A DNA stretch of 64,000 nucleotides, from the UHGV virus genome UHGV-0076294; one strand, written 5' to 3'. The notes beneath the pieces were generated by a model. That model searched no databases. It was not told the DNA's origin and worked only from the letters and a program-made list of their open reading frames with translations. Source of the DNA: a virus. The position numbers and the translations under genes were made by a program. Below, piece after piece: positions 2,758 through 17,223 of the stretch. Within the stretch, counting starts at the first letter, position 1. Each line of letters opens with the position of its first letter.

Positions 2758-3285
2758 ATGGCTAAAGCCTTCAATCAACAGCTCATCGAAGCTGTAATTG
2801 CTAAAAACTCAGGAACCGCTTCTAATCTGACGGTTGGTGATGTCGATTTTGGTGCTGTTGCTGAGTTCAGCGGAGACGCTGGCCGCAACACTAAAATTAC
2901 ACTGACCGCCAAGGCAGAAAGCCAGAACTTCAAAGGCGAGAAAGAATTCCACTACACTCGTCTGGTCTCGCAAAGCCTCATTACGCTGACGGAAGTTACA
3001 GCAGAAACTACTGAAGTCGAAGATTCTGTTATCATCGCAAAACTCAACGAAGATATAGTCGCTAAAGGCTATACTGACGACGAGTTCAAAGCCGAAGAAT
3101 TGACCATTCAGAAAACTGATGCAGGTGAAGGTAATTTCAATTACACCGTTAGTGTAAACGAAGGTCATATCAAATTCTTAGCTGGACAAATCGCTGTTTA
3201 TAGCTATAAAAAGCCAGCGCCTGAAAAAGTAGCTCTGAGCGGTCTGGAAGGTGAGCTCGACGCCTTCACAGCTCCAGTAGCCTAA
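2758..3285 (+). CDS. Hypothetical protein, paralog of 3337-3870
   Basis: Strong SD gaggtaaaaaaaag; shares C-terminal GELDAFTA/GELDGFTA and internal NTKITLTA/NTKVTMTA with neighbour; followed by hairpin terminator. Confidence 0.6.
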   Translation: MAKAFNQQLIEAVIAKNSGTASNLTVGDVDFGAVAEFSGDAGRNTKITLTAKAESQNFKGEKEFHYTRLVSQSLITLTEVTAETTEVEDSVIIAKLNEDIVAKGYTDDEFKAEELTIQKTDAGEGNFNYTVSVNEGHIKFLAGQIAVYSYKKPAPEKVALSGLEGELDAFTAPVA

Positions 3286-3336: not shown

Positions 3337-3870
3337 ATGGATAGTCAAGCTACTAACCAAATGCAGCTAGTCGAGTTATATAACGCTGCCAACACTGGTT
3401 TGCCGCACAAATTGGTGTCGTCTGAAGTAAAATTTGGTCTGCCCTCTGCAAACGACGACGGTGAAAAAAATACCAAAGTTACAATGACCGCTTTACCCGG
3501 CTCAGAAAATTTCCGTGGTCAGATTGAACTTAAGTACGACCGATTAAACCCCTCCATAATTTCTGATTCTCTGGGAGTGGTCAAACTCGAGGGGGAGATA
3601 GAAAAATGGCGGGAAGATAACTATGTTCGCGCCTATCTGCAACATTATATTAACCAAGTAAAACCCAAAGACACAATAGCCACAGGCGATATTGTTTATA
3701 GTTACGAAGAAGTAAAAGAACAGGATAAACTTGTCGCACTACGAGTTACCTGCACTGTCGCTGAAAGAAACCATAAATATCTGCAAGGCGTAATGCTTGT
3801 CTTTGAAGTTAGTCCAGAAAAGATCGATCTTTCCACCACCAACGGTGAGTTGGACGGTTTTACTGCTTAA
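3337..3870 (+). CDS. Hypothetical protein, paralog of 2758-3285
   Basis: SD aggagaaaaa; paralogous motifs as above; followed by bidirectional terminator. Confidence 0.6.
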   Translation: MDSQATNQMQLVELYNAANTGLPHKLVSSEVKFGLPSANDDGEKNTKVTMTALPGSENFRGQIELKYDRLNPSIISDSLGVVKLEGEIEKWREDNYVRAYLQHYINQVKPKDTIATGDIVYSYEEVKEQDKLVALRVTCTVAERNHKYLQGVMLVFEVSPEKIDLSTTNGELDGFTA

Positions 3871-3909
3871 TCGCTAAGTCAACTATTATAACAAAAAAAT
3901 AATAAGTTT

Positions 3910-3945
3910 ACCTACCTCCTTTACGGAGGTAGGTACTTTTTTTAT
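3910..3945. terminator. Bidirectional terminator between convergent operons
   Basis: acctacctcc-tttacg-gaggtaggt followed by actttttttatttt. Confidence 0.7.
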
Positions 3946-4616
3946 TTTATCCCCATTTCTAAAGCGTACGCTCGGATGGTATCATAATCACGCTGCTCGG
4001 CTAAAAGTCGAAGCTCTTTTTTCTGCTCGGTTTTCTGATTATGCAATTTCTGATCGCGTTTCACAATCGTTGCCATCAGTTCCTTACACTGCTCCAATGT
4101 GAACGGTTCCACTCGAGCGTTTGATGTGTCCAACCAGTAATCCGGTGCGGTTTCTGATTGGATATACTGACTTAACATCTGTCTTGACGTTGAGTCTGTT
4201 TGGAAATAACGTCCGTTTAATTCAATAGGCGCATAACGTTGCTCCTCATAAAGACGCTCCATCTCTATCATGATTTTCTGAACATCCTGATAGATATACC
4301 GCACCGTAGAACGAACGTTATTTCGTATTTCTTCTAAATCAATCTCAAGAACATCAGAGATAAATTCTTTCGCTTTCTGTAGCGTAAAATTAGCCTCAAT
4401 CTCTGACATATCATAACTGCGCATCTGTTCGATTGCGGCCTTATCTTCCAACCCTTCGATTAATTTGTAATGTAGAAGCGCACAAAAACCTGCACGGCCA
4501 CGATCCTCATTGCCAATTCGTTCCATGTAATTACCGTGCCGATCGATTGGAAGCCCTCGTGAGAAATAACGTTGGCGTATTTCCTCTTTCGTTAAGCTTT
4601 CGTCAATAACAGACAT
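3942..4616 (-). CDS. Hypothetical protein (last gene of radical SAM cluster operon)
   Basis: Long ORF, start overlaps upstream gene end; no recognisable motif. Confidence 0.5.
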   Translation of the reverse strand: MSVIDESLTKEEIRQRYFSRGLPIDRHGNYMERIGNEDRGRAGFCALLHYKLIEGLEDKAAIEQMRSYDMSEIEANFTLQKAKEFISDVLEIDLEEIRNNVRSTVRYIYQDVQKIMIEMERLYEEQRYAPIELNGRYFQTDSTSRQMLSQYIQSETAPDYWLDTSNARVEPFTLEQCKELMATIVKRDQKLHNQKTEQKKELRLLAEQRDYDTIRAYALEMGIK

Positions 4617-5164
4617 TCATCATCTCCTTTAACTAAACCCAGTTCAATTAACAATTCAAAATCGATTTGGCGAAATTTGTTATCAAAACCAGAATCCCAA
4701 TCGATATGTAACCCTTGTCGTTCTTCATCGGTAAGTTCAGGATAAATTAAACCAAGGAACGCTTCACGTTCTTCGTAAAATCCATCGATAGTAGAATCTG
4801 GATTTCGTGTTGCATAGATCGTAATGCCCGGAAAGGATAATCCTAATGCTGTTATAGATTCGACGCTCGGTTCTTGCAAGGCCCTGCGTAAAAGCACGAT
4901 TTTATGTCGTGGAAATTCTAGTACACGTTGTTCAAATCCAGGATTCCGTTTCTCAATTTCTGTAACTGAAAGATCGGTGAGTTCTGTGCAATACATTGGG
5001 ATAACTACGGTTACTCCGTGACGAATTAATAGTCGTTTAACATCGTCAGTGAAGTCTTCACCGTTAATTTGCACATAACAACCAAACAGTTTTGTGCTCT
5101 CTAAAAACTTTTCCAAAAAACGGAATTTACGCTTCGTAATATTGTGGATCAGAATTGGTTTCAT
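4592..5164 (-). CDS. Hypothetical protein (radical SAM cluster)
   Basis: ORF overlapping both neighbours (coupled translation); no recognisable motif. Confidence 0.5.
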   Translation of the reverse strand: MKPILIHNITKRKFRFLEKFLESTKLFGCYVQINGEDFTDDVKRLLIRHGVTVVIPMYCTELTDLSVTEIEKRNPGFEQRVLEFPRHKIVLLRRALQEPSVESITALGLSFPGITIYATRNPDSTIDGFYEEREAFLGLIYPELTDEERQGLHIDWDSGFDNKFRQIDFELLIELGLVKGDDECLLLTKA

Positions 5165-6449
5165 CTTTGGCTTCTCTCAATTGTTTTTCTTTCTGGGCAC
5201 GTTCACGTACGCAACGAGGGCAATAACACATGCTATTATCGTGAAAATCTTTCACTGACGTCGTGCCCATTTTCTGTTTCCAATATTCCGCAACCATCAA
5301 TTTTGCAGTTGTCCAGCCGCATTGACGGCGTTCGGCGTGATAAGCTTTGCGATCTTCTAGCGTCCCTTCTCCATTCTCGTAAGATGCAGCCGCACAACTA
5401 CCACAAGCGTGCTTCATTGGACAACCTAAACAGGTTTCAGGATAGTTGGTATATTGCGTCTGAATCTCTTCCAGCAATTTCCCGTCATCTAAGCTAACGA
5501 ATTCCCGGCCAACTAATTCAAATACGGCAGAACGTGATGTTACGGTTGACATGAAACGGTTACAACCGAAGATCTTACGATCGAATCCTAAGCAGGTCAT
5601 GTGTGTTAACGTACCGCAGAACGGACGTAAACGTTCTGGATTCAAACGTACAGTATCGTTATACAATAATTGGTCGCGCCAGTTTGGTTCCCAGATAGTA
5701 TCAAAATCTAACCCGTCTGGAATGATGTGCGACAAGGTGTTACGTGGGTTGGTGTGTAAGCCCTTCTCAACCCAATAATCAACCACATCCATCATCTGCA
5801 ATGCGATTGAAGTAGCCATGCTCCGTGGCATAATGTCTTCGAAGGTTACGTTGCCGGAAATAGTTCCACCGCCAGTAATATCAATTAATGATTTCATTCC
5901 AGCAGCATAGAACGGTAACGTTTCCAACGTAAAGGTCGCTTTTACACCAAGTTCTGCAATACCGACTTCTTTTAAGTAATTATAGCCCCGCACAGCGGCC
6001 TCGTAAGATCCTTCACGAGTTGTTGTAAAAATCCGGTACTTATCGTGCGATTCGGGCAATCCATCAATAGACACCCCAATAGAAAGCCTGTCTTTCCAAC
6101 GTTCAATAATTTCTCTATTCAAAGGTCTATCTAACAATGTTCCGTTAGTAGAAATGCTAAACATAAACGGCCGATTATGTTTTTCGCATAACTCTTCTGC
6201 GGTTTCAAATGCCGCCATTAATAACTTAGGCTGCATAAACGGCTCGCCGCCGATAATGTCGATAACGACCTCGATGTTTGTCAGGTCTTTATCCCTTTCG
6301 AAACAGGCATGTAAAAAATCAACGATATCTGCCGCTTTGTTATTCCGAGGATACTTACGTTCGTAACAATACTCACAGTCTAGGTTACACGATAAATTTG
6401 TAACGATCTGATAAGTCAGTTGTTTAGGATAACTATTTTCTTGACTCAT
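5127..6449 (-). CDS. Radical SAM enzyme with C-terminal SPASM/twitch-like Cys-rich domain
   Basis: CNLDCEYC (CxxxCxxC) near N-terminus, GGEP motif; C-terminal CGTLTHMTC...GC and CLGCPMKHACGSC cysteine clusters typical of SPASM auxiliary Fe-S domains. Confidence 0.8.
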   Translation of the reverse strand: MSQENSYPKQLTYQIVTNLSCNLDCEYCYERKYPRNNKAADIVDFLHACFERDKDLTNIEVVIDIIGGEPFMQPKLLMAAFETAEELCEKHNRPFMFSISTNGTLLDRPLNREIIERWKDRLSIGVSIDGLPESHDKYRIFTTTREGSYEAAVRGYNYLKEVGIAELGVKATFTLETLPFYAAGMKSLIDITGGGTISGNVTFEDIMPRSMATSIALQMMDVVDYWVEKGLHTNPRNTLSHIIPDGLDFDTIWEPNWRDQLLYNDTVRLNPERLRPFCGTLTHMTCLGFDRKIFGCNRFMSTVTSRSAVFELVGREFVSLDDGKLLEEIQTQYTNYPETCLGCPMKHACGSCAAASYENGEGTLEDRKAYHAERRQCGWTTAKLMVAEYWKQKMGTTSVKDFHDNSMCYCPRCVRERAQKEKQLREAKDETNSDPQYYEA

Positions 6450-7356
6450 TTTCCGCCCCTCTATTACGTTCTGCCATCACTACACGACGAATGTACTCGT
6501 AAGCTTCTACACCTATTGAGGAGGCTAGTTGGTTACACCCTGCTTTCGTAGCTATTGGTACATTTTTAAGTTGGTTTTCTTCCCCGTCCGCGTCTATCCT
6601 GAGACTTTCGCTACAGGCGTTACAAGCATGATCGAAGAATCTGTTTACAATAAAGCCGCAGTCTCTAGAATTTAGAACATTCAGTCTTTCTATATTCTCC
6701 TGAATTCTAAAATACCCGTAAATAAAGTTCATAACGTGATCGGGAGATAACGGTTTTGGCATGTTTTTGTCTAGTAATAAGGACATAGAACGAAAACCGT
6801 AATGGTAGATAGCAGTATATAATTGAATGATATCTTCATGCCATCTTTTATTGGATAAATTCTCCCTCGTAACAACAGCCCAAGTGTTAACATTATTCAA
6901 GCTGTAAATTACTTCTAACGCCTCATGGCAATTATCATCAATAAAGCGCTTAAAAGGCCGTTCAGAAAGATTAAACCCATCGATGCTAACATATATAGCA
7001 TCGAATTGTTTTAACAACGGTAGATGCGATTTACGCATTTTTAAACCGTTCGTGAACATTTGGTGTTTGAGTTCAGGACGGATCGTTTTTAATTCGTCAA
7101 CAAACGCCTCAATCTTTCGAGTTGCCAGTAGCGGTTCACCGCCAGTCCACTGAATTTCAGTAATGGTTGGGTTAGACGACAACGCTTTCAAAATTCGTTC
7201 ACGTTGAAACTCTCGCGGAGAATCTTCACGATGCATGTAATAGGCTCCGCCGCAGAAGCTACAGTCCAGATTACATTTGGATGTAGCAACTACGGACAAT
7301 ACGGTGGGTTTATTGTATAAACGATTCGATAACCTTGGCTCTACGTCGGTTGTCAT
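6433..7356 (-). CDS. Radical SAM enzyme (paralog of 9406-10320)
   Basis: CNLDCSFCGG (CxxxCxxC) and GGEPLL motifs; ATG at 7356 preferred (SD ggag) over 7371; 3' end overlaps start of SPASM gene. Confidence 0.8.
   Translation of the reverse strand: MTTDVEPRLSNRLYNKPTVLSVVATSKCNLDCSFCGGAYYMHREDSPREFQRERILKALSSNPTITEIQWTGGEPLLATRKIEAFVDELKTIRPELKHQMFTNGLKMRKSHLPLLKQFDAIYVSIDGFNLSERPFKRFIDDNCHEALEVIYSLNNVNTWAVVTRENLSNKRWHEDIIQLYTAIYHYGFRSMSLLLDKNMPKPLSPDHVMNFIYGYFRIQENIERLNVLNSRDCGFIVNRFFDHACNACSESLRIDADGEENQLKNVPIATKAGCNQLASSIGVEAYEYIRRVVMAERNRGAENESRK
6679..6773. repeat. 95-nt block identical to 9643-9737 (within paralogous radical SAM genes)
   Basis: Read directly; flanking coding sequence of the two paralogs is clearly diverged. 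Confidence 0.85.
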
Positions 7357-7377
7357 TGCAGGTGACTCCATCTATTT

Positions 7378-8265
7378 TTAAATATAGCCAATGGATAACA
7401 AAGGATCGTCGTAAGCGTTAACTCCGGGTTTTAATACAAATGGTGAATTGTAAGCCTCGATAATGCGATTAAGGTCCTTATAACGCACGTTTAAACGTTC
7501 TAAATCCGCCAACGTTACGTTACGTTCCAATACCGCCGACACTGCTGCTTTTTCTTCATCAGTTAACGTGACTTTCGTCATTAAGAAACTAACAAGTTTT
7601 GCTAAATCTGCTTCCGATGACGGGTGTTCACCAATACGTGTTTGAATTAAATGTTGCATCCACGGCTTACGAATACGTTTTGTGATTTCATGTTCATCTG
7701 TAAGGGCAACCCACACAGAGCGTTCGCGATCCCACACAAATTTATAACTGTACGCCATCAGATCGGCTAAGCAGTTGATGCCAAGCTCCTCGTAACCTTC
7801 TATTTCAATGTACGGTTCGGTATCAACATAGTTTTTTGTTTCTACAGGAACCAGTGCATAAAAGTACGGGAATGAACCGAGATAGTCTGGAGACCACCAA
7901 CGACGTGCTACAGGCTTCGCATTCAACTCTTTAAATGGCGTAAAGAACAATTCCAAATCTACAGAATTATTCAGAATACCGTCACTAAAGAAATATTTAC
8001 CGTCAACCAATTTACCGCGTAAATCTGAATCACCGGTAAACACCACTACGCTTTCTGCTGACAGATCGCGTATTTTAAAAGTGTTTTCTACTGAATAGTT
8101 ATTGCGATCGGTAAAAAAACGACCGCGCACTTTGGGCCATTCGCCAGGTAACTGAGTTAACAAACGAACTTTATCTTCCAAATGAGCGCGTATTGAATCG
8201 GGGGAAGAAATATGAAGTGGGTGGTTGAAAATTGTTTTATAGGCTAAATGCAAATCGTTTTTCAT
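7378..8265 (-). CDS. Hypothetical protein (radical SAM cluster)
   Basis: Long ORF between Cys-rich genes and radical SAM gene; no recognisable motif. Confidence 0.5.
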   Translation of the reverse strand: MKNDLHLAYKTIFNHPLHISSPDSIRAHLEDKVRLLTQLPGEWPKVRGRFFTDRNNYSVENTFKIRDLSAESVVVFTGDSDLRGKLVDGKYFFSDGILNNSVDLELFFTPFKELNAKPVARRWWSPDYLGSFPYFYALVPVETKNYVDTEPYIEIEGYEELGINCLADLMAYSYKFVWDRERSVWVALTDEHEITKRIRKPWMQHLIQTRIGEHPSSEADLAKLVSFLMTKVTLTDEEKAAVSAVLERNVTLADLERLNVRYKDLNRIIEAYNSPFVLKPGVNAYDDPLLSIGYI

Positions 8266-8277
8266 TGATTACTCCAA

Positions 8278-8757
8278 TTATTTTACGGTCAATCTGACGT
8301 TCAAGGTATAGAACCCGCCACGCCATTGCCTGCCGGTAACTTCAAATTCCGCAGTAAAGCCGTTTGATTTACTCGGTTGCTGCGTAATCGCCATGGTTCC
8401 GCCGGAATTACTTAATACTTCTAACGAGATAGAAACAGAAGATGCATTACCGATAGAGTCTATCTTAAAACTAGCCGCGTCTGTAAAATTGACACTGATA
8501 CCGTTACCCATCGCAACTTGTGGATAGGCGTAAGACTTGCCAGACAGTAACGATTTAAAGATCCTCATCGGTTTTTCTTTACCGGTTAATGTTGCGCATT
8601 GAATAAAGACGGTCCCAGTAGAGAAATTGATACGGACAACATCTTTAGCGTGTAGCTTAGACTCAACATAAACAACGGCTTTGTTATCGTAGGCGGGTCT
8701 TGATGGGGTTGGTGTGGAACCGCCGCCGGAGGGCTTACTTACCCCCCCCCCGCTCCC
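8278..8757 (-). CDS. Hypothetical protein; frame is open upstream of the first ATG (8568) up to the C10 tract, candidate frameshift fusion partner of the Cys-rich ORF 8739-8945
   Basis: ORF track gives 8278-8568; same frame has no stop from 8757 down to 8568 and no obvious SD before the ATG at 8568. Confidence 0.4.
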   Translation of the reverse strand, partial: GSGGGVSKPSGGGSTPTPSRPAYDNKAVVYVESKLHAKDVVRINFSTGTVFIQCATLTGKEKPMRIFKSLLSGKSYAYPQVAMGNGISVNFTDAASFKIDSIGNASSVSISLEVLSNSGGTMAITQQPSKSNGFTAEFEVTGRQWRGGFYTLNVRLTVK

Positions 8758-8945
8758 TTACTACAGCTACCGCTGCACGACCAACTACAACCACCGTTAC
8801 AATTATAATGACTTAAAGGTAACCCAGCTAGATTGTTGGTTGAAGAAACCGTCCCTTGGTTTGCAATATAGTTGTTTGCATTAGCGGTGGTGATATATCC
8901 CTCCGCTGTTACTAACCTGTCGCGTATGTTTTTAAGACTTATCAT
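8739..8945 (-). CDS. Cys-rich leader+core peptide C (short core, ends in poly-Gly encoded by C10 tract)
   Basis: Leader MISLKNIRDRL and junction HYNCNGGCSWSCSGSCS are paralogous to peptides A and B; start 3 nt after stop of peptide B. Confidence 0.55.
   Translation of the reverse strand: MISLKNIRDRLVTAEGYITTANANNYIANQGTVSSTNNLAGLPLSHYNCNGGCSWSCSGSCSKGAGGG
8742..8751 (-). repeat. C10 homopolymer (G10 on coding strand) at 3' end of Cys-rich ORF C
   Basis: Read directly; encodes the terminal GGG; a 1-nt frame change here joins an open downstream frame. Confidence 0.9.
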
Positions 8946-8948
8946 TTC

Positions 8949-9347
8949 TTATCTTCCAGTACACGATTGCTGACATCCGCCTCGACATGAACCCGAACAT
9001 GTTCCGGTGCAACTACTTGAACAACCACCCGAGCAGTTACCTGTGCACCCTCCTGAGCAGGTACTGCTACAACCTGTACAACCTGTACTACATCCTGAAA
9101 CACAGTTCGCTGAACAGGAAGAACCGCAGCCACCGGAGGCGTTGCCGGTGCAGCCGCCCGAACAACTTGAGCATGTCCAGCTACAGCTACCTCCGCAGTC
9201 ATAGTGAGTTCTCGGCTGTCCTCCAAACAGATCGCTATTATTAGTGGCTTTACCACGAATATAGTTCTGCACCGCACCAGTGTTTTTTAATGCAGTAGAG
9301 TCTATGTTATCCAGCCGGGCCTTTAAAGAAGATAAACCAATCGCCAT
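8949..9347 (-). CDS. Cys-rich leader+core peptide B (precursor-like; about 24 Cys at C-x3-C spacing)
   Basis: Leader about 45 aa then DCGGSCSWTCS followed by repeats such as CSGGCTGNCSGGCSSSC; SD aggt. Confidence 0.65.
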   Translation of the reverse strand: MAIGLSSLKARLDNIDSTALKNTGAVQNYIRGKATNNSDLFGGQPRTHYDCGGSCSWTCSSCSGGCTGNASGGCGSSCSANCVSGCSTGCTGCSSTCSGGCTGNCSGGCSSSCTGTCSGSCRGGCQQSCTGR

Positions 9348-9405
9348 TTTAATACCTACTGGTTTAGTGCCCCCTAGGACACATTATAATTCATTTTCTG
9401 TAAAA

Positions 9406-10320
9406 TTATCGTAGTTTTTCTGAGACTCTATTCTTAGCCCCTACCACACGACGTATATAGTCGTAAGCATCTAATCCAACCTTTCTGGCCAAGTCACTAC
9501 AACCATGCTGCGTTACGATTTCAACGTTCTTTACTTGGTTCTGGGCACCGTCAGACTCAATGCGAAAACAACGACTACACGTATTACAGGGTTCATCAAA
9601 TAACGCATTTAGCGTAAACGCACATTCACTTCGATTGGACGAATTCAGTCTTTCTATATTCTCCTGAATTCTAAAATACCCGTAAATAAAGTTCATAACG
9701 TGATCGGGAGATAACGGTTTTGGCATGTTTTTGTCTAAAACCAGCGACATCTCACAAAAACCATAATGGTAAATGTGGTTATGTAACGCAATTATATCTT
9801 CGTACCAACGTTTATCCCCAATACGCTCGCGTGTCAAGACCGCCCAAGTACGAATATTTTTCAATTCGTAAATTGTCTCCAAAACCTCGTATTGTTTTTC
9901 TTCGATAATCCTCATGAACGGACGCTCTGATTCTTTGAATCCATCCATGCTAAAAAAGATACTATCAAAACCCTTTAACAACGGTAGATGCGATTTACGC
10001 ATTTTTAAACCATTGGTATACAGGTAATGTTCGCAACGAGGATACTTCTCCCTTATCTCTTCTATAAGGGTATCAATTTTACGCGAGGCAAGTAATGGTT
10101 CGCCCCCTGACCATTGGATATTTGTGATAGTCGGGTTATTTTCCAGCGCCTCGATAATACTTTCCTTTTGTACTTCTGTGGTTGTATCCTCTCTATGCAT
10201 GTAATAGGCTCCGCCGCAGAAGCTACAGTCCAGATTACATTTGGACGTTGTAATCACGTTTAACGTTCTCGGATTACTGTAGAGCTTATCGGATACCGTC
10301 GGTCTAGTAAGTTCTTCCAT
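9406..10320 (-). CDS. Radical SAM enzyme (paralog of 6433-7356)
   Basis: CNLDCSFCGG motif; SD aagga; begins 19 nt after stop of peptide A. Confidence 0.8.
   Translation of the reverse strand: MEELTRPTVSDKLYSNPRTLNVITTSKCNLDCSFCGGAYYMHREDTTTEVQKESIIEALENNPTITNIQWSGGEPLLASRKIDTLIEEIREKYPRCEHYLYTNGLKMRKSHLPLLKGFDSIFFSMDGFKESERPFMRIIEEKQYEVLETIYELKNIRTWAVLTRERIGDKRWYEDIIALHNHIYHYGFCEMSLVLDKNMPKPLSPDHVMNFIYGYFRIQENIERLNSSNRSECAFTLNALFDEPCNTCSRCFRIESDGAQNQVKNVEIVTQHGCSDLARKVGLDAYDYIRRVVGAKNRVSEKLR
9643..9737. repeat. 95-nt block identical to 6679-6773
   Basis: Read directly. Confidence 0.85.
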
Positions 10321-10339
10321 TCGAACTGATCCTTATTTT

Positions 10340-10735
10340 TTATGGGTTAGAACAACCACCTGCACAAGAACCACTACACCCCGAGGAACAACGTCCAGCA
10401 CATCCCCCAGTACAAGTCCCACTACATCCTGAACAACCACCCGAACATGTTCCGGTGCAACCACTGCATTGATTACCACACGCAGAGGAACAGCTTCCTA
10501 CGCACACCGATGTACATGTACCTGAACAACTCGTACAACCATGCGTACAACCGTTTGAGCATGTCCAGCTACAGCTACCTCCGCAGTCTAATCGACCGGG
10601 TGTCCAACCTGAAAATGAATCAGCAGCATTATGTGCTTTCGACGCAACTTGCGGATCAACACGTGGCCCAGTTGCTATTCGGTTCTCTACGTTGGTGATT
10701 CGGTCACGTACGTTTTTAACACTGATCGCCATCAC
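10340..10735 (-). CDS. Cys-rich leader+core peptide A (precursor-like)
   Basis: Leader MMAISVKNVRDRITNVENRI..., junction RLDCGGSCSWTCS, core of C/G/S/T with C-x3-C periodicity; SD aaggat. Confidence 0.65.
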   Translation of the reverse strand: MMAISVKNVRDRITNVENRIATGPRVDPQVASKAHNAADSFSGWTPGRLDCGGSCSWTCSNGCTHGCTSCSGTCTSVCVGSCSSACGNQCSGCTGTCSGGCSGCSGTCTGGCAGRCSSGCSGSCAGGCSNP

Positions 10736-10754
10736 ATATCCTTAAAATAAAAAA

Positions 10755-10790
10755 GAATGGAGGACTACGTCCATAAACATAGTTCCTCCT
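10755..10790 (-). terminator. Imperfect hairpin with U-rich tail on minus strand between fibre gene and Cys-rich peptide A
   Basis: ggaggact...agttcctcc; minus strand reads hairpin then attctttttatttt. Confidence 0.4.
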
Positions 10791-10799
10791 GTAATTAAA

Positions 10800-11999
10800 T
10801 TATTTCGTACCCGCTTCTGCTTGTACGTCATCACGAGACGTCAGGTTAGCGTTAACGTGCACTGGGGCCTGAACCACGCCACCGTATCTCTTGTGGAGAT
10901 AACCTGTATGTGGGTTATCTGCCGCAATGTGGTTTTGTAGGTTTTGGTTCGCCTGACTGATTGCGTTCGTGTTATTATTAACCTGCTGTTTAAGCGCATC
11001 CAGGTTTTGTTGTAACTGATCGATTTTCTGATCGGTTTCTTGGCCATGTTGCTCTAACGCTTCAACACGCTGAATAACCTGATTCAGTTTTGTATTTAAA
11101 TCGTTGACACTCTTTTGCAGTTGTAACACTAACGAGTTCAGGTTCGCTAACGCTAAAGCCATTTTCTGGTAGTTTTGAGCAACCACGTTAAGTTGGTCGT
11201 TCCACGCTTCCAGAGAGCTGACAACAGCGTCAATACGCTTACCTAAAGCTTCATCTGCTTTCTTCAGTGCATTGATTTCCGTAATCGTTGCGTCGATAGC
11301 AGACTGGACGTCACGAATAAGCGCACGGATTTCAGTTTCTGTTAGTCCATTAACCTGATGGATATCAAGTTGGTGGACGTTACCGGTTGCATTGATGTGC
11401 GCATTTAAAGCGTCCAAGAAGTCGTTTTTCAGACTTTCCAGAATCGCTTTAATGTTCTCTAACTGTACCGCATCGCCAGAACTGATCGCGTCCTTAATGC
11501 CCGCCAATACAGCGATGATATATTCAAAGCCATAAATGTCACCTACGTCTTTATACGTCGGCGCTGACGGGAATGTATCTGGTACGTTACGTAAGTCTTT
11601 AAATGCAACTGTACGGTTATCGAGGTTTAGCTCAGCAATCGCTTGTTCGATAGCCACGATGTTTGCAGACTGTGGGCCACCAACTACCTGCGCAGATACC
11701 GTAATGTCTGTCGGAATCGCTGTGTTAGTGACCACAACCGCCATGACAATCTCGCGGTTTTTAGTCAGCTTTTCATAAGCCGGGTGTGCAAAAATCAACT
11801 CATAATCGGTACCACGTTCGTAGGTTGCATCCGGTCGGTTAGCAACGCGCAAACGAAACGTGTCCGCAAAGAACGGGCCGTCAGGAAAAGCAAAAGCACG
11901 GTTTACTTTACCTGTACCTAACGTAACCTGACGCTCCACAGCGTTAGACGTTAGCGAGCCTGTTAAATCTAAAGGATATTGGTAAACAATGGAGGCCAT
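10800..11999 (-). CDS. Tail fibre-like protein with coiled-coil region
   Basis: N-terminal module shared with the three large downstream proteins (PDGPFFADTFRL...GTDYEL); long Q/N/L-rich heptad-like segment; ATG at 11999 preferred over GTG at 12005. Confidence 0.5.
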   Translation of the reverse strand: MASIVYQYPLDLTGSLTSNAVERQVTLGTGKVNRAFAFPDGPFFADTFRLRVANRPDATYERGTDYELIFAHPAYEKLTKNREIVMAVVVTNTAIPTDITVSAQVVGGPQSANIVAIEQAIAELNLDNRTVAFKDLRNVPDTFPSAPTYKDVGDIYGFEYIIAVLAGIKDAISSGDAVQLENIKAILESLKNDFLDALNAHINATGNVHQLDIHQVNGLTETEIRALIRDVQSAIDATITEINALKKADEALGKRIDAVVSSLEAWNDQLNVVAQNYQKMALALANLNSLVLQLQKSVNDLNTKLNQVIQRVEALEQHGQETDQKIDQLQQNLDALKQQVNNNTNAISQANQNLQNHIAADNPHTGYLHKRYGGVVQAPVHVNANLTSRDDVQAEAGTK

Positions 12000-12039
12000 G
12001 GCCACTCTCCTTTATTCGAGACGTCCTTGTCCCGAGTCA

Positions 12040-15000
12040 TTAAGATGTAAACATAAGATTGAACTGGAGTTTGTCGATATCTCGAGTTTCAGCCGGATTC
12101 AACGCATCGAACGTAGTTGCCACATAAACCGTTAGCGTACCATCATCATACGAAGATTTCACCGGCGGATTAGTTCCAGTCTGACCATCTCTCACAACGA
12201 GTGCAGGCTCGCTGGGAAGATTATCAAACTGCCCTTTAACCGCTTTGTATACCAAACCGGACTGTGCAGATAACTCCGTGTCTGTGTACACACAGAACGG
12301 TGTATCGATGTCAGCTTGTTTGATAGTGGTACCGGATTCGACATCAATCAACTGTACTGCTCCAAACTTCGTGCGATAACTTTCATATTCGTTCTTCGGA
12401 ATAACAAAAGTAACGTGAACACGAACTTCTTCAGCGGGCTTAAAGCCAGTATGTTCTTTTTCCAAATACTGATTGGCTGATAGCGTCACTTTTTGTTCGG
12501 CCATCGAACCACCTGCCTGATTTATTCCGTACCGGGCTTCAACAATACCGGTTGGTGCAGCAAGTCGCAATTTCAGAGTTCGATTCGCCGTTCCTGGATT
12601 ACCTGGCACTTGAACGCGCAAACTCAATGCTAAGTAAGCATACGTTCCGGTAGTCGGTTTCGTATACGCACCTATCCATTTCATGTTCGCAGACGCTGCC
12701 TGCGAGTTCTCAGAAGCAGTAGCTGTCGCAATGTTAGCAGCTACCGCTTTCTGCCAGAATTGGTCGGCGCAGTTCTCATACGCTACTCTGGCCACGCTCT
12801 TATAACCCGAATACGTTTCCTGGATTGGTATCTTAGGACGCGTCGTGATGCCAGACAATGAACCCCATTTCTGGCCGTCAACATACCCTTCGCCCTTCGA
12901 CGCAGACGCCGTAGGTGCTTTAACGGGCTTGTTAATCAGTGTTAATAGAGGACCCGTCTTTCTGTCGAACGCTGCCGCTACATCGTGTTGGTCGATAATT
13001 GCTGCGTGGTCTTCCAGCTCTTTCACACGACCCAAGCGTTTTACTTTGTCGATACTGATATCAGTAATACGGCTGGAATCGGTGGTTACTGTCCCAACGA
13101 ACAGTCTTGTTGAAGTATCGGCTAACTGCTCCAAACCGATGCGGTATTGCGCGGTAGAACCCGACACCTCAGCGTGCACGTAGAACGTCTGGTTAGCGTG
13201 ATTGGACGGGAACTCGCTGCTTAAATCCACAGACCACGTTGGGAGTGTATAGCTGCTACTACCGAAATCTAACTTGACTTCTTCAGTCAGATACAGAATC
13301 CAACCTTCCGCTGTTTCCACACCGGCGATGATAACAGCCTGACCTCCGGTTGAGAAGGTCGTGTCGTTAACAAACTCTGCGGCTGTATACGCGTTACCTG
13401 AGCAGAAAACGCGGTCAGCTTTAGAGAAAATCAACGCCATCTTGTCCCAGTTACCCGCACCCATATAGCACCCAGATTCTGGGTTATGTGCAGGAGCCAT
13501 CTGTCGTAACTGCGACTTACCAGGAACGCGAGACCAACCTGAACCTGGGTCGTAGGTATACTTCGCGGCGTAACCTAGTGCGTTTAAGTCCCCGATATTT
13601 CGGATAGTTAACGTATAAGGTAGCCAGATACCGAAGTTAGTTCCATCCGCAGAAGCGAAAATAGGCTGTCCGACGCGACGGGTCTTATTACCAGCCTCCT
13701 CTCTTAACGACTGATAACTTAAACCGTAATCTTTATCCAGGAACCAATCCACCAACTTAAAGGTAGCTGAGTTGAACCGTAAGTAGCCATTCTCTTTAGA
13801 TGGACTCACCATGAAGTAATAGATATCAAGAATTCGACGTCCGTTACTTAAGGTTTTCATGCACGAAACTTGCAACAAGTCAAACTCGCACACGGTATTG
13901 ATACCCAACATCCAAAGAGCAAACAAGGCATTACCGGTTTGATGTGCAGCACTAATACGCTCGTTTGCGTATCCGTTCGCTTCACCAGAAGGCGCACCGT
14001 CAACGATCATCTGAATCATTTTCTGACGATCGGTTTCTTCTAACGTTAAGCGTTCAGAAGACAACGCAAAGTTACCGTAGATGTTACGATACGGGAACGT
14101 TTCTGCTTTGGTCAAATACCAACCATTTAATTGACCGTGACGTTCTTCAGGGATCATGCACGCCGCCATACAGCTAAGCTGTTCGTAAAGCGTTGCATCG
14201 ACTTCACGACGGTTGTTATTCGGTCCGTAGCCACTGTAACCCGGAACGTCGTAAGGTTTATTCGGATCAACTTCCACTTCGATGGTATAACGGTTACGTG
14301 GGTTTGACAACCACACCTTATTCGAACCACCAATTCCGACAGGATGAGAAAGACCGATGGTATAAATAGAACCACGACCTTTATCCCAGGTAAACGTTCC
14401 TTCGCCTGAGGTATTGTTTGGGTTATCGTAACGCAGATAATCGAAAAGCTCTTTGCCTTGCGTTCCTTTAATAGAAACGTTAGGCATCTGGTCTGCATCG
14501 TTAATCTGCCAACAGGAAAGCATCATTCCCGTACCGTTGGGTTTAGCATACGTCGCGAAACAACGATTGTTTGCTTGACCACCGCCCCACTTACGGCTGG
14601 TTTCTACAGTTGAACCATCCGCGAAAGAGAGTGTAGTAGCATCAGCCTTGATGGGGAAGCGTTCGCGGCCTTCTAACGTAACCTTGCCCGTCGACGTATC
14701 GATTGTAAAACTTGTTGCCCATTGACGAAAGTTAATTTGTGAGCTGTCAGCCGCTGCAAACCACACAGTAGGCATATGGTTCACACGAATCACGCCGTCG
14801 CGCACTGCACAAGCATGGTTACATTCTGGACCGTGAACAAAGTTGCAACCAATTGTCCATTTAGCCCGTGCTTCCGGCGTCAAATACGTAAAGAACTGAC
14901 CCGTTTGTGACTCTTCGGTTTTCTGGCCAATGCGTAGGCAGAGGTTATCTCCAAATTGTCCCATCTCCCCGTTTAGTGTTACGCGTTCAAACTCCAGCGT

Positions 15001-17223
15001 GGTGCTAGTAGACAAATCGTCCTTACGTAGACGCCAAGCTGCTACTGCGTAAGCAGAGTTATTTACCGTAGAGCGGAGAAGATAAACGTAATCCTCAACC
15101 AACACAACATCATCGGCTTCTGGCCACGGATTCCAGGTTTGTTCCACAGTACCGCTGGGGTTGCCGTTACGGTACACGGGCATCGTAACGCGACATACCA
15201 CCGTGTGTTTAGTGTGATCCATCGAACCATTAAACAACACCAAATAACGGTTATTATCAGAACCCAGACAAATAATCGCTTCCTGACCACCGATCAATAT
15301 AGCTTTCAGGGTCACTTCAGGATATTTACTCATCCCGGCAGGGTGATATTTCACTGAGGTCTGCTGCGGATTTACAAACGCGTTTGACGTGTTAATGTCA
15401 GCATAGCCGTAATAAATGGCTTCTGTACCCGGTACGCCGTTAGAACCGTTACGGAGCGAATAAACCTTACCCTGCTGATACCCAACAACCCCTTTTTGAT
15501 AAGACTGGTTTTTGGTATAACCCGAATAGTTACCTAGCGCTGGGATAGGTAAGAAGTTCTTGTTACCGAACTTCGCACCACCTACCGTCCACGCCGGTAA
15601 GATGGTATTCAGTTTATCAGAGACTTTCTTAATCTCTTTTGCGAACAGCCACCCTTGACGCGACGTGACAGCTTTATCGTTAGTAGTGTCAATCGCATCC
15701 CAGAGCTGCAAGATGCCGTCAACCGTTGCACTACCAATTGGAATGTTAACCAAGTCAGCAGTGGTGTGTGTATGCGTCTTCAAACTCTTGTTTTTCAACA
15801 CGTTCGTTAACGCTTTCGTCACCGGCTTAGCACTTGGCGTGGTGTTATCCATCTTATCGATACCGAAATCGGTTTTCGTTAAGGTTAACACCATACTGTC
15901 GCCTACCTTAACAAACCCTTTACCGTTAACGGTATAGTCATCGTCAACGTACAGGTCCAAGCGGTCTTTTAATTCGGTTACGGCTTTCTGGGAGATAGCA
16001 GTACCTAACGCCGCAGACGTGGAGATATTCGTAATCGAGAACAACCCATAAACTGATTCGGTCGCTGTGGGAATATTCGCGTTTAACGTAACCGGGTTAG
16101 TCTGTTTTGCGGTACCGTACGGTTTTACAGTGTCTGACGCTTTGAAATACGCGTTTGCTTCGAGCAACGTTACTGACGTCAGGTACATGTTCACCATTTC
16201 TGGCGTAACCAGATACACGGAGTTATAAACTGGCGCTAATACATCCTGTTCTGACCCCGAGTGAACCCAAAGCGTATTCAGACCCGCACTGAATTCAACC
16301 GCTAAACCCGATTCGTTGTTGTCCTGGTCTGCTTTAATCACCAACGGTTGTGGCGAGGTAATTAACCACTTATCACCACGAATACTGATGATGTGGCCAC
16401 CTGACGTTTTAAACGTTAATTCATTACTGTTCGTGGTACCCCATCGACCGTAAACGGTGCCGAGGGCTTCACCCATTAACTGGTCAACGTCCGATTGCTC
16501 AATACCCGCTGAACCCATCAGCGTAGCCAACTCGTCAATCGTCAACCCAAACGCTTTTGTAGCGTCAACAGCACGTCCTAATACGGGAAGAGCAGCAATG
16601 TCATCAGTGGTATAATGATGCGCGTTAGGGTTACGGTGATGCTGGTATAATTCTTCGTCGAAAACCTTTTTCCCGTTCTCGTAAATCAGGTTAGTGACTT
16701 CACTGAACGCAGCATCTAACTCCGTAGAACGCTTAATGATTTTCTTGCGAATGTCTTCTAACGCCTTAACAACCTCATCCCTCAGAATCGCTTCTTCTAA
16801 GTTAGCAGGCGGGTCGATAGGCTGAATAACCGGCGCATACGCCATTAGTTCAGACCAGTCCACGTTACGTGGGTCTTTCAGGTCAGTACGAACTAAGAAC
16901 TTCCCGATTTCAGATTGCGGTACACGATATTGACGTGCTACCCCTAAAATCTCATATTCGATTTCTGTTGCAGTAAGCAACATAAACCCGCCGTAAATCT
17001 GATCTTGTTCAGCTTCTGCGAGTTCTTTAAAGTAATAGCCTAAATAGTAGTCCAACCCCTCAATCAGAGTACGACGTCCGTTAGGCGCGGTATCGTCGGC
17101 TACTGTGAGTTTTAATCCGATACGATAAAAAGGTCCTTCAGGTGGAATGACCACGTTAAATCGGTTAGGGTACGTTGCTGTGCTTAGCGTACCGTTAAAC
17201 TGCGCCGCGTCTTCTCTCGGCAT
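12040..17223 (-). CDS. Large structural protein, tail fibre/spike candidate (1727 aa)
   Basis: SD aggagtc; N-terminal module IPPEGPFYRIGLKL...GLDYYL resembles tail-fibre attachment domains; G/S/T/N-rich beta-like composition. Confidence 0.5.
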   Translation of the reverse strand: MPREDAAQFNGTLSTATYPNRFNVVIPPEGPFYRIGLKLTVADDTAPNGRRTLIEGLDYYLGYYFKELAEAEQDQIYGGFMLLTATEIEYEILGVARQYRVPQSEIGKFLVRTDLKDPRNVDWSELMAYAPVIQPIDPPANLEEAILRDEVVKALEDIRKKIIKRSTELDAAFSEVTNLIYENGKKVFDEELYQHHRNPNAHHYTTDDIAALPVLGRAVDATKAFGLTIDELATLMGSAGIEQSDVDQLMGEALGTVYGRWGTTNSNELTFKTSGGHIISIRGDKWLITSPQPLVIKADQDNNESGLAVEFSAGLNTLWVHSGSEQDVLAPVYNSVYLVTPEMVNMYLTSVTLLEANAYFKASDTVKPYGTAKQTNPVTLNANIPTATESVYGLFSITNISTSAALGTAISQKAVTELKDRLDLYVDDDYTVNGKGFVKVGDSMVLTLTKTDFGIDKMDNTTPSAKPVTKALTNVLKNKSLKTHTHTTADLVNIPIGSATVDGILQLWDAIDTTNDKAVTSRQGWLFAKEIKKVSDKLNTILPAWTVGGAKFGNKNFLPIPALGNYSGYTKNQSYQKGVVGYQQGKVYSLRNGSNGVPGTEAIYYGYADINTSNAFVNPQQTSVKYHPAGMSKYPEVTLKAILIGGQEAIICLGSDNNRYLVLFNGSMDHTKHTVVCRVTMPVYRNGNPSGTVEQTWNPWPEADDVVLVEDYVYLLRSTVNNSAYAVAAWRLRKDDLSTSTTLEFERVTLNGEMGQFGDNLCLRIGQKTEESQTGQFFTYLTPEARAKWTIGCNFVHGPECNHACAVRDGVIRVNHMPTVWFAAADSSQINFRQWATSFTIDTSTGKVTLEGRERFPIKADATTLSFADGSTVETSRKWGGGQANNRCFATYAKPNGTGMMLSCWQINDADQMPNVSIKGTQGKELFDYLRYDNPNNTSGEGTFTWDKGRGSIYTIGLSHPVGIGGSNKVWLSNPRNRYTIEVEVDPNKPYDVPGYSGYGPNNNRREVDATLYEQLSCMAACMIPEERHGQLNGWYLTKAETFPYRNIYGNFALSSERLTLEETDRQKMIQMIVDGAPSGEANGYANERISAAHQTGNALFALWMLGINTVCEFDLLQVSCMKTLSNGRRILDIYYFMVSPSKENGYLRFNSATFKLVDWFLDKDYGLSYQSLREEAGNKTRRVGQPIFASADGTNFGIWLPYTLTIRNIGDLNALGYAAKYTYDPGSGWSRVPGKSQLRQMAPAHNPESGCYMGAGNWDKMALIFSKADRVFCSGNAYTAAEFVNDTTFSTGGQAVIIAGVETAEGWILYLTEEVKLDFGSSSYTLPTWSVDLSSEFPSNHANQTFYVHAEVSGSTAQYRIGLEQLADTSTRLFVGTVTTDSSRITDISIDKVKRLGRVKELEDHAAIIDQHDVAAAFDRKTGPLLTLINKPVKAPTASASKGEGYVDGQKWGSLSGITTRPKIPIQETYSGYKSVARVAYENCADQFWQKAVAANIATATASENSQAASANMKWIGAYTKPTTGTYAYLALSLRVQVPGNPGTANRTLKLRLAAPTGIVEARYGINQAGGSMAEQKVTLSANQYLEKEHTGFKPAEEVRVHVTFVIPKNEYESYRTKFGAVQLIDVESGTTIKQADIDTPFCVYTDTELSAQSGLVYKAVKGQFDNLPSEPALVVRDGQTGTNPPVKSSYDDGTLTVYVATTFDALNPAETRDIDKLQFNLMFTS

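Follow-up and report, generated by a model that had tools for sequence, protein, structure and literature searches.

We analysed a 64-kb stretch of the viral genome UHGV-0076294 (called the window below, by which we always mean the whole stretch) and describe here a module of ten co-directional minus-strand genes at positions 3942–10735, between a hairpin (3909–3935) and fibre genes, that encodes three radical S-adenosylmethionine (SAM) enzymes and three Cys-rich proteins, A, B and S. The source phage is of the jumbo type, with about 70% DNA identity to the SPN3US/SEGD1 (Seoulvirus) and Erwinia Machinavirus groups. Our results favour a reading, which we consider the probable one, in which a radical SAM system of the kind that matures peptides made by ribosomes and then post-translationally modified (RiPPs) has been recruited to modify or crosslink a domain of the tail-fibre tip where Cys recurs at every fourth residue (the CXXX domain). 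The argument starts from direct observations: the genes and their coding frame, the family relations of the enzymes, the co-occurrence of enzyme and CXXX genes, and fusions of the CXXX domain to fibres in other phages. A preliminary description of this DNA had counted eleven genes in the unit; we find ten, and the minus-strand open reading frames (ORFs) that it located are all present, at essentially the same coordinates.

Three Cys-rich proteins

Cys-rich A (10340–10732, minus strand, 130 amino acids [aa]) is composed of an N-terminal region of ~50 aa, the junction DCGGSCSWTCS and an 81-aa CXXX core, with 21 Cys. Its ORF spans 10340–10735, and the orthologues match the ATG at 10732, which by this comparison is the likely true start. 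Cys-rich B (8949–9347, minus strand, 132 aa) has an 82-aa CXXX core and 20 Cys, and the short paralogue S (8739–8945, minus strand, 68 aa) comprises the N-terminal region and the junction only, with 4 Cys. The common junction noticed previously is indeed present in all three (C-G-G-S-C-S-W-T-C-S). Several figures given with it need correction: the N-terminal region is longer than the ~45 aa reported, the cores are shorter than ~85 aa and contain fewer than ~24 Cys each, and their composition is not restricted to C, G, S, T, N and A, as a few V, W, H, Q, R and P are also found. Similarly, the motif S(L/V)KN(I/V)RDR, attributed to the three proteins, occurs in A and S as S(V/L)KN(V/I)RDR, whereas B reads LSSLKARLDN. 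Successive Cys are exactly four residues apart in most cases (17 of 20 intervals for A, 16 of 19 for B), and Cys is the sole invariant residue of the core. No other ORF of the 64-kb window contains a run of five or more closely spaced Cys. For these runs the reversed sequence was a poor control (17 matches, as TGT reversed is TGT), and the rest of the window together with strand and distance statistics was used.

In A, B and S it is the Cys frame that is coding. When three diverged phages are compared (the window phage, SPN3US and an Erwinia phage), the first, second and third codon positions of this frame differ 35, 24 and 82 times in A, 37, 30 and 97 times in B, and 11, 4 and 44 times in S; the columns that hold Cys are conserved. 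S is under the strongest purifying selection of the three, with 39 synonymous versus 8 non-synonymous codon changes relative to SPN3US. This codon-position analysis rules out that A, B and S are non-coding or off-frame artefacts. The GenBank records of the relatives are in error at these genes: SPN3US gp166 is an off-frame ORF overlapping B, while SPN3US A and S are unannotated (JN641803, L003 among the loci compared here, 5692–6721), and SEGD1 gp169 and gp170 are off-frame ORFs lying over the Cys-rich genes (L001, 10288–11316). In JN641803 the correct SPN3US ORFs are on the complement at 143191–143397 (S), 143413–143817 (B) and 143828–144220 (A). The SEGD1 orthologue of A is apparently frameshifted, with an ORF of 47 aa after which the reading frame is lost. 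A tblastn search found the N-terminal region in 60 phage records, many of which have no annotation there.

Only 20 homologues of A were found among 5.8 billion proteins; they have longer and diverse N-termini, followed by a C..GCSWTCS junction and a CXXX core. A and S match phrog_6085 (E=6e-40 and E=8e-25). A and B reach the 20-bit cutoff of the target model TIGR04114 with 20.1 and 22.3 bits, which is marginal for a repeat model of 18 positions, and PF27846 gave no match to A or B in the Pfam search although it is precomputed on homologues.

Radical SAM enzymes

The large enzyme (5127–6449, minus strand, 440 aa) contains the radical SAM motif CX3CX2C (C21, C25 and C28) within CNLDCEYC, and seven further Cys (C278, C296, C340, C343, C349, C352 and C377) that fit the SPASM pattern, in agreement with the C-terminal SPASM-like clusters pointed out previously. 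These radical SAM and SPASM Cys are invariant in 6/6 phage lineages and in 12/12 diverse sequences. The best curated match is TIGR04115, the model of peptide maturases with a CXXX-repeat target (118.1 bits over residues 10–371, cutoff 350), followed by the PapB family NF047865 (114 bits, cutoff 340); the SCIFF maturase family TIGR03974, to which CteB belongs, gives 58.8 bits (cutoff 425) and the QhpD family TIGR03906 gives 57.5 bits (cutoff 453). Because 118 bits is far from the cutoff of 350, we place the large enzyme in a sister group of TIGR04115 rather than in that family. The sole PDB match is CteB (5wgg, E=1e-11), and as the alignment begins at residue 105 of CteB and residue 19 of the query, the N-terminal RRE-type domain is missing. 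Candidate CXXX targets are nearby, A, B and S being within 2.3–4 kb of the large enzyme and on the same strand; the Cys-X3-Asp/Glu substrate typical of PapB is absent, the window cores containing neither Asp nor Glu. One GenBank record automatically annotates the enzyme as AlbA, and in L007 the radical SAM gene (6693–7985) has an in-frame stop under translation table 11, which may reflect recoding, an alternative genetic code or an error of sequencing.

These relations bear on the chemistry. The same substrates might undergo another reaction (formylglycine or dehydroalanine formation from Cys, epimerisation, C–C links or methylation), or might form a metal or disulfide scaffold with few changes, and this alternative draws on the low family scores, on the many different reactions run by SPASM enzymes (reviewed in PMC10114670), on cores devoid of the Asp/Glu acceptors of PapB and on a small enzyme with only generic matches. 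However, TIGR04115, PapB and CteB head the informative matches of the large enzyme; PapB and CteB form Cys thioethers, TIGR04115 is a family modelled with CXXX targets, and Cys is the one invariant residue of the core. We therefore regard another chemistry as rather unlikely and, by analogy with the closest characterised relatives PapB, CteB and QhpD, favour thioether formation as the predicted reaction.

Small enzyme 1 (6433–7371, minus strand, 312 aa; its upper coordinate had been given as 7356) and small enzyme 2 (9406–10320, minus strand, 304 aa) are 62.5% identical and share KCNLDCSFCGG, consistent with the pair of paralogues described earlier. They have the CX3CX2C motif and 2–3 conserved C-terminal Cys, and lack a SPASM domain; their matches are otherwise generic (Pfam Radical_SAM, 53.5 bits for small enzyme 2). 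Small enzyme 1 is the copy kept in all relatives that have a two-enzyme module, and it is homologous to the N-terminal half of a 668-aa fusion protein from a T7-like phage. Small enzyme 2 sits between A and B, its start 19 nt from the stop of A, exactly the distance already measured. It is present in L023, a 97% identical relative (3564–4484), and missing in L013 (94%), in SPN3US and in the Erwinia phages; judged from sequence comparison, it is a recent lineage-specific duplication.

Radical SAM enzymes of phages are known to take part in thymidine hypermodification (PMC8989533), and the enzymes studied here could in principle act on a nucleotide, on DNA to be hypermodified or on a cofactor, with Cys-rich neighbours present by chance. 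The small enzymes do weakly match the QueE, NrdG, MoaA and viperin families, but with 31–52 bits versus cutoffs of 126–284; the profile check against QueE- and NrdG-type families proposed in the preliminary description thus yields no membership, and we rejected an identity as nucleotide-modifying or ribonucleotide reductase-type enzymes. Moreover, the SPASM Cys of the large enzyme are conserved, no nucleotide-modification gene was found in the locus with Pfam and PHROGs, and, as described below, nearly all relatives of the large enzyme are accompanied by a CXXX ORF. We give a non-protein substrate almost no credence.

Enzymes and CXXX proteins occur together

A pattern scan of IMG/VR returned at least 488 relatives of the large enzyme, and 80 loci were analysed. 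With a CXXX ORF defined as one containing a run of at least seven closely spaced Cys, such an ORF was present in 78 of the 80 loci, encoding proteins of 100–940 aa with up to 92 Cys. Nearly all of these ORFs are on the strand of the enzyme (101/102), 90 are upstream of it, and the median distance is 975 nt. Two loci are exceptions: in L032, an ORF of 101 aa that ends in GCESCAMGCHGPQ comes directly before the gene of the 295-aa protein family (see below), and in L031 the contig ends ~1.1 kb upstream of the enzyme, so that a CXXX gene, if there is one, lies off the contig. Conversely, a radical SAM gene lies at a distance of one to three genes in all six database contigs in which the context of an A homologue was inspected. 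Enzyme and CXXX protein thus co-occur near-obligately, and the pairing of radical SAM enzymes with Cys-rich proteins first noticed in the window extends to other viral loci, the closest enzyme families being maturases of CXXX targets and of ranthipeptides. Some IMG/VR proteins, of 376–488 aa, have very long uninterrupted runs, with 92, 71 and 62 closely spaced Cys (L035/L036, 4783–6246; L069, 5659–6957; L046, 4904–6031).

Two types of module can be distinguished. Type 1 has a single enzyme; those of L009 and L010 pass the TIGR04115 cutoff of 350 with 386 and 379 bits, and their genes sit in phage structural modules. The IMG/VR loci L034–L092 resemble type 1 in gene content, without a small radical SAM gene (L081 being one weak exception) and without a 295-family gene, the TIGR04115 scores being those of L009 and L010. 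Type 2 includes the window and L013–L033, all with at least 30% identity; here 20 of 21 loci have a 295-family gene and 19 of them a small radical SAM gene, and the gene order is conserved: CXXX protein, 295-family protein, enzymes. The 295 family strictly accompanies the two-enzyme form. Contigs of ~240 kb with the radical SAM protein of this phage occur in many assemblies at NCBI under the labels Salmonella, E. coli or 'Curtobacterium' (P0032–P0064), and we take these SPN3US-like genomes inside bacterial assemblies to result from contamination or a carrier state.

The CXXX domain in tail fibres

Prophage genes turn out to be the nearest 'bacterial' relatives of the large enzyme, and they connect the CXXX domain to tail fibres. 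In the P2-like tail module of Campylobacter pinnipediorum (L011/L028), the fibre protein itself, recognized by PF12571 (139 bits) and by many tail-fibre PHROGs, terminates in a C-terminal CXXX run, GCNGCSGSCSGSCSSGCTACSGCSGSCSG. Where a fibre-assembly chaperone would normally be encoded after such a gene, the prophage has genes for a 250-aa protein and then for the large and the small enzyme. The fibre-repeat protein of a Deferribacter prophage contains KATNADQLGGQAGSYYRCSDCSWTCSS and 29 Cys, and its gene precedes genes for a 250-aa-type protein and the large and small enzymes as in Campylobacter; a tblastn search of phages with the N-terminus of this fibre gave only three weak matches, to archaeal viruses. 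The CXXX domain is C-terminal on the fibre-repeat protein of a lambda-like prophage. Among type 2 loci, the CXXX protein of L033 matches many tail-fibre PHROGs and that of L027 matches families of long-tail-fibre distal subunits, both with a C-terminal phrog_6085 domain, and the CXXX protein of L026 is a structural protein of 600 aa. B gave no significant BLASTP match to the L033 fibre, the link to L033 being made through phrog_6085. In the T7-like podophage L005, the genes for the tube, the nozzle, gp14–16-like proteins, a PF03906 fibre adaptor and a 118-aa collagen-repeat protein are followed by those for a Cys-rich protein, which matches phrog_5073 in its N-terminus and has the CXXX domain at its C-terminus, then for a 238-aa protein and for a 668-aa protein in which the N-half corresponds to the small enzyme and the C-half to the large enzyme. 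The collagen-repeat protein (9632–9988) and the neighbouring Cys-rich protein (10001–10621) have their first ~67 residues in common, a resemblance which suggests that they may be alternative tips on a common attachment domain. For type 1, the gene directly upstream of the CXXX gene codes for a fibre (tail or tail-collar) in two loci, L040 and L056, and for a structural protein in L082, the L056 fibre matching phrog_2163, the family of the 401-aa fibre protein next to A in the window; none of the ten upstream genes examined has a non-structural assignment. Bona fide tail fibres thus contain the domain in L011/L028, L033, L027 and L005. The preliminary description had asked whether the Cys-rich proteins match a tail-fibre domain of phages that lack radical SAM genes: the domain is a tail-fibre domain, found only in loci that also have radical SAM genes.

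The fused fibres also clarify what had been called a leader. A, B and S do have a distinct N-terminal region, but it is not a classical RiPP leader: fused fibres have, ahead of their CXXX domain, a segment homologous to its last ~17 residues plus the junction. KATNNSDLFGGQPRTHYDCGGSCSWTCSS of B aligns to the Deferribacter fibre-repeat protein (56% over 36 aa, E=2e-5), where the segment quoted above is the part that aligns to the N-terminal region and junction of B, and the junction of A is homologous to the C-terminal region of the 600-aa L026 protein (E=2e-10).

Small proteins with a leader-plus-core layout, next to enzymes that resemble RiPP maturases, one of them even named AlbA in an automatic annotation, may nevertheless call to mind free RiPP precursors, cut from their ~50-aa leader by a host or other protease and freed at lysis as a toxin, a signal or an anti-defence peptide, S being possibly a decoy or a regulator. 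Several observations make this improbable. In other phages the homologous domain belongs covalently to tail fibres of 256–600 aa, and in the loci examined the module is always in tail or fibre gene blocks. As stated in the preliminary description, no transporter or leader peptidase is recognizable: Pfam, NCBIfam and PHROGs detect no peptidase or transporter family in the ten module proteins, the structural model of the 295-aa protein has no protease-like neighbour, and an immunity gene was likewise not found in the locus searches. Finally, the large enzyme has no N-terminal RRE domain, its radical SAM motif starting already at residue 21. These data, and the fact that genuine tail fibres carry the CXXX domain as a fused part, favour a non-exported or structural product, the option towards which the first description leaned.

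Virion data and the third component

The virion proteome of SPN3US includes gp167–173 and gp160 and none of gp161–166 (PMC5694885 Supplementary Table 1). gp161, the orthologue of the DUF4376 protein of the window, is accordingly not among the virion proteins (PMC5694885). gp167 is present in virions and not assigned to the head, and gp168 is an essential 'baseplate/tail fiber candidate', also in virions. Their window orthologues are a 401-aa coiled-coil fibre protein immediately upstream of A (10800–12005, minus strand; phrog_2163, E=3e-104) and a 1727-aa fibre or baseplate protein (12040–17223, minus strand). Since none of gp161–165 was detected there, virions do not contain the enzymes or their neighbours, as one would expect of maturation factors. 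On A, B and S this proteome is mute because their ORFs are outside the annotation that was used. The 401-aa fibre protein is a candidate attachment partner of A, B and S.

Besides the enzymes, type 2 modules usually encode a 295-aa protein (7378–8265, minus strand; phrog_8030), in the position of a fibre chaperone. It has no detectable structural relatives, and is a candidate adaptor or chaperone that would present the CXXX domain to the enzymes. Another explanation treats the CXXX domain as a transient module of assembly, akin to an intramolecular chaperone, which nucleates fibre trimerisation and is then removed, being modified but not present in the mature virion. Self-cleaving chaperone domains of fibres are C-terminal like the CXXX domain, and the module sits in the slot of the P2 fibre-assembly gene. 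Still, no protease domain was found in the domain searches, two radical SAM enzymes would be costly for a domain to be discarded, and in the window the CXXX proteins are separate polypeptides. We judge this explanation very improbable.

Other features of the locus

The last four genes of the unit are joined by overlaps of 17, 38 and 25 nt, which bears out the tight coupling initially described. Downstream of the large enzyme gene are a gene for a 190-aa protein (4592–5164, minus strand; phrog_7988), which has a homologue at the equivalent position (L004_172, E=2e-10) and is kept with the module in jumbo-type phages only, and the last gene of the unit, for a 224-aa DUF4376 protein (3942–4616, minus strand; PF14301, 37.7 bits, cutoff 25), which has weak similarity to tail-fibre PHROGs (phrog_1141 'tail fiber protein', E=3e-5). 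The hairpin (3909–3935) has an 11-bp stem and lies between convergent transcription units. It had been proposed as a bidirectional terminator at about 3910–3945; the terminator-like hairpin is there, with a T-run that is clear on the plus strand and weaker on the minus strand. Within the module, a 96-aa ORF (8278–8568, minus strand) without a match in Pfam, NCBIfam or PHROGs comes after a gap of 170 nt and has no counterpart at the equivalent position of SPN3US. It looks like a lineage-specific insertion inside the module, and its status as a member is uncertain.

Just past the module, on the plus strand, the window encodes an endolysin with GH108 and PG_binding_3 domains (152–742), a DUF1353 protein (850–1524) and tandem DUF7941 paralogues (2758–3285 and 3337–3870). 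DUF1353 proteins are also encoded in L011 (9068–9433) and L002 (6351–6998); the gene adjoins the module in the Erwinia phage and directly follows the small radical SAM gene in the Campylobacter prophage, and from this neighbourhood the protein may be a further, loosely associated component. The DUF7941 paralogues are orthologous to SPN3US gp160, a high-copy head protein with >300 copies per capsid; the locus has one copy of this gene in SPN3US and SEGD1 and two in the Erwinia phage.

A proposed model for fibre-tip maturation

We propose that A, B and S are small substrates resembling fibre tips, whose C-terminal domain has a Cys at every fourth residue, and that in SPN3US-like phages the CXXX domain would have been split off from the fibre as these separate proteins. 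The large enzyme, a SPASM-type radical SAM protein akin to the thioether-forming maturases of ranthipeptides, would act on the CXXX domain, assisted by the small non-SPASM enzyme (duplicated here) and by the 295-aa protein. Late in infection, inside the cell, hydrogen atoms would be abstracted from core residues and Cys sulfurs joined to carbons, giving a ladder of thioether staples within one chain or from chain to chain in a fibre trimer. So stapled, the domain would remain on the virion as a rigid tip, resistant to reduction and to proteases, and is probably attached to the upstream 401-aa fibre protein. The arguments for the CXXX domain as the substrate are the near-obligate pairing and the enzyme families, and we infer that the product is part of the virion.

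Several points weigh against this proposal. All window enzymes score well below every curated family cutoff; the cores have none of the Asp/Glu acceptors that PapB uses, and the small enzyme and the 295-aa protein have no assigned role. In the window, A, B and S are small proteins that do not form one polypeptide with a fibre, and no fibre homology was detected in their first ~30 residues. The AlphaFold2 (AF2) model of B, with a pLDDT (predicted local distance difference test) of 47, contains an N-terminal helix only and no confident core. The mass spectrometry of SPN3US virions was blind to the Cys-rich proteins, whose genes were unannotated or called off-frame.

A broader proposal, which we put forward tentatively and which could well prove wrong, is that the 'CXXX-repeat RiPP' families are a fibre-tip maturation system across many phage lineages, that the system would build a thioether ladder, the first radical SAM modification of a virion structural protein, and that A, B and S would form the stapled tip of SPN3US-type phages, missed by proteomics owing to misannotation. 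The enzymes of SPN3US have borne the label 'putative radical SAM superfamily protein' from the time of its sequencing, and the Cys-rich proteins are PHROG 6085, of unknown function. We found no paper that describes the system or ties it to tail fibres, none on TIGR04115 or TIGR04114 in the literature searched, nothing that connects SPN3US, jumbo phages or SPASM enzymes with the system, and no text that links these families to phages; a 2026 review of jumbo phages makes no mention of radical SAM enzymes or RiPPs. Covalent stabilisation of virions is known for capsids, from the isopeptide chainmail of HK97, and we found no report of it for tail fibres or by radical chemistry. If the model is correct, it would represent a new principle of fibre assembly and stability, and the engineering or swapping of receptor-binding proteins for phage therapy would require that the enzyme-dependent steps be supplied. 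It would also give a biological role to an orphan maturase family, with large and naturally repetitive substrates of up to 92 Cys. The systematic annotation error, which leaves the Cys-rich genes missing or in the wrong frame in SPN3US and many relatives, makes existing virion proteomes blind to their products.

Comparison with known systems

Maturation of a Cys-rich target by a SPASM radical SAM enzyme is known, and the window system, which we take to be of this kind, lies outside TIGR04115, PapB and SCIFF by their family cutoffs. The pair TIGR04115/TIGR04114 (PF27846) is the nearest, since it also combines a SPASM enzyme with neighbouring proteins that have Cys at every fourth residue, is the best curated match and has a target cutoff that A and B reach. 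The window system differs from it by the enzyme score (118 vs 350 bits), hence its place in a sister group, and by the small radical SAM enzyme and, usually, the 295-aa protein. The true TIGR04115 members of our set (L009 and L010) are, like the window enzyme, in phage structural modules.

PapB, the freyrasin enzyme, acts on repeated Cys-X3-acceptor motifs with a period of four (PMC9413430), and thus shares with the window system the radical SAM and SPASM domains and the repeat period; it differs by score (114 vs 340 bits) and by the Asp/Glu that the window cores do not have. CteB, which makes the SCIFF peptide thermocellin, is also a radical SAM and SPASM enzyme and the best PDB match, with the differences that the score is 59 vs 425 bits and that the window enzyme has no N-terminal RRE. 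In both cases the substrates are short exported peptides, in contrast with the fibre-associated proteins and domains of up to 940 aa of window-type systems. A precedent for crosslinking a protein subunit rather than a RiPP is provided by QhpD, a SPASM enzyme that installs several intra-protein Cys thioethers in the QhpC subunit of quinohemoprotein amine dehydrogenase (PMC10114670), although it is a distant relative (57.5 vs 453 bits), with another substrate and context and no link to phages. Among phages, the phiKZ-like Aeromonas phage 332-Vera is reported to have eight radical SAM genes in its structural cluster of tail-fibre and baseplate genes, described as 'highly unusual' (PMC12390700), the one remark of a related sort that we found in the literature. 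This phage was not matched by our searches, and it may represent a separate or expanded version of the same idea.

The module can also be compared with fibre chaperones. P2 gpG, Mu gpU and T4 gp38 and gp57A are encoded directly downstream of the fibre gene, are needed for the distal end of the fibre and are not virion proteins. The module has the same slot in the P2-like prophage, and gp161–165 of SPN3US are likewise non-virion proteins. Chaperones of this kind are, however, non-enzymatic and make no covalent modification, whereas the slot is filled in the module by two radical SAM enzymes.

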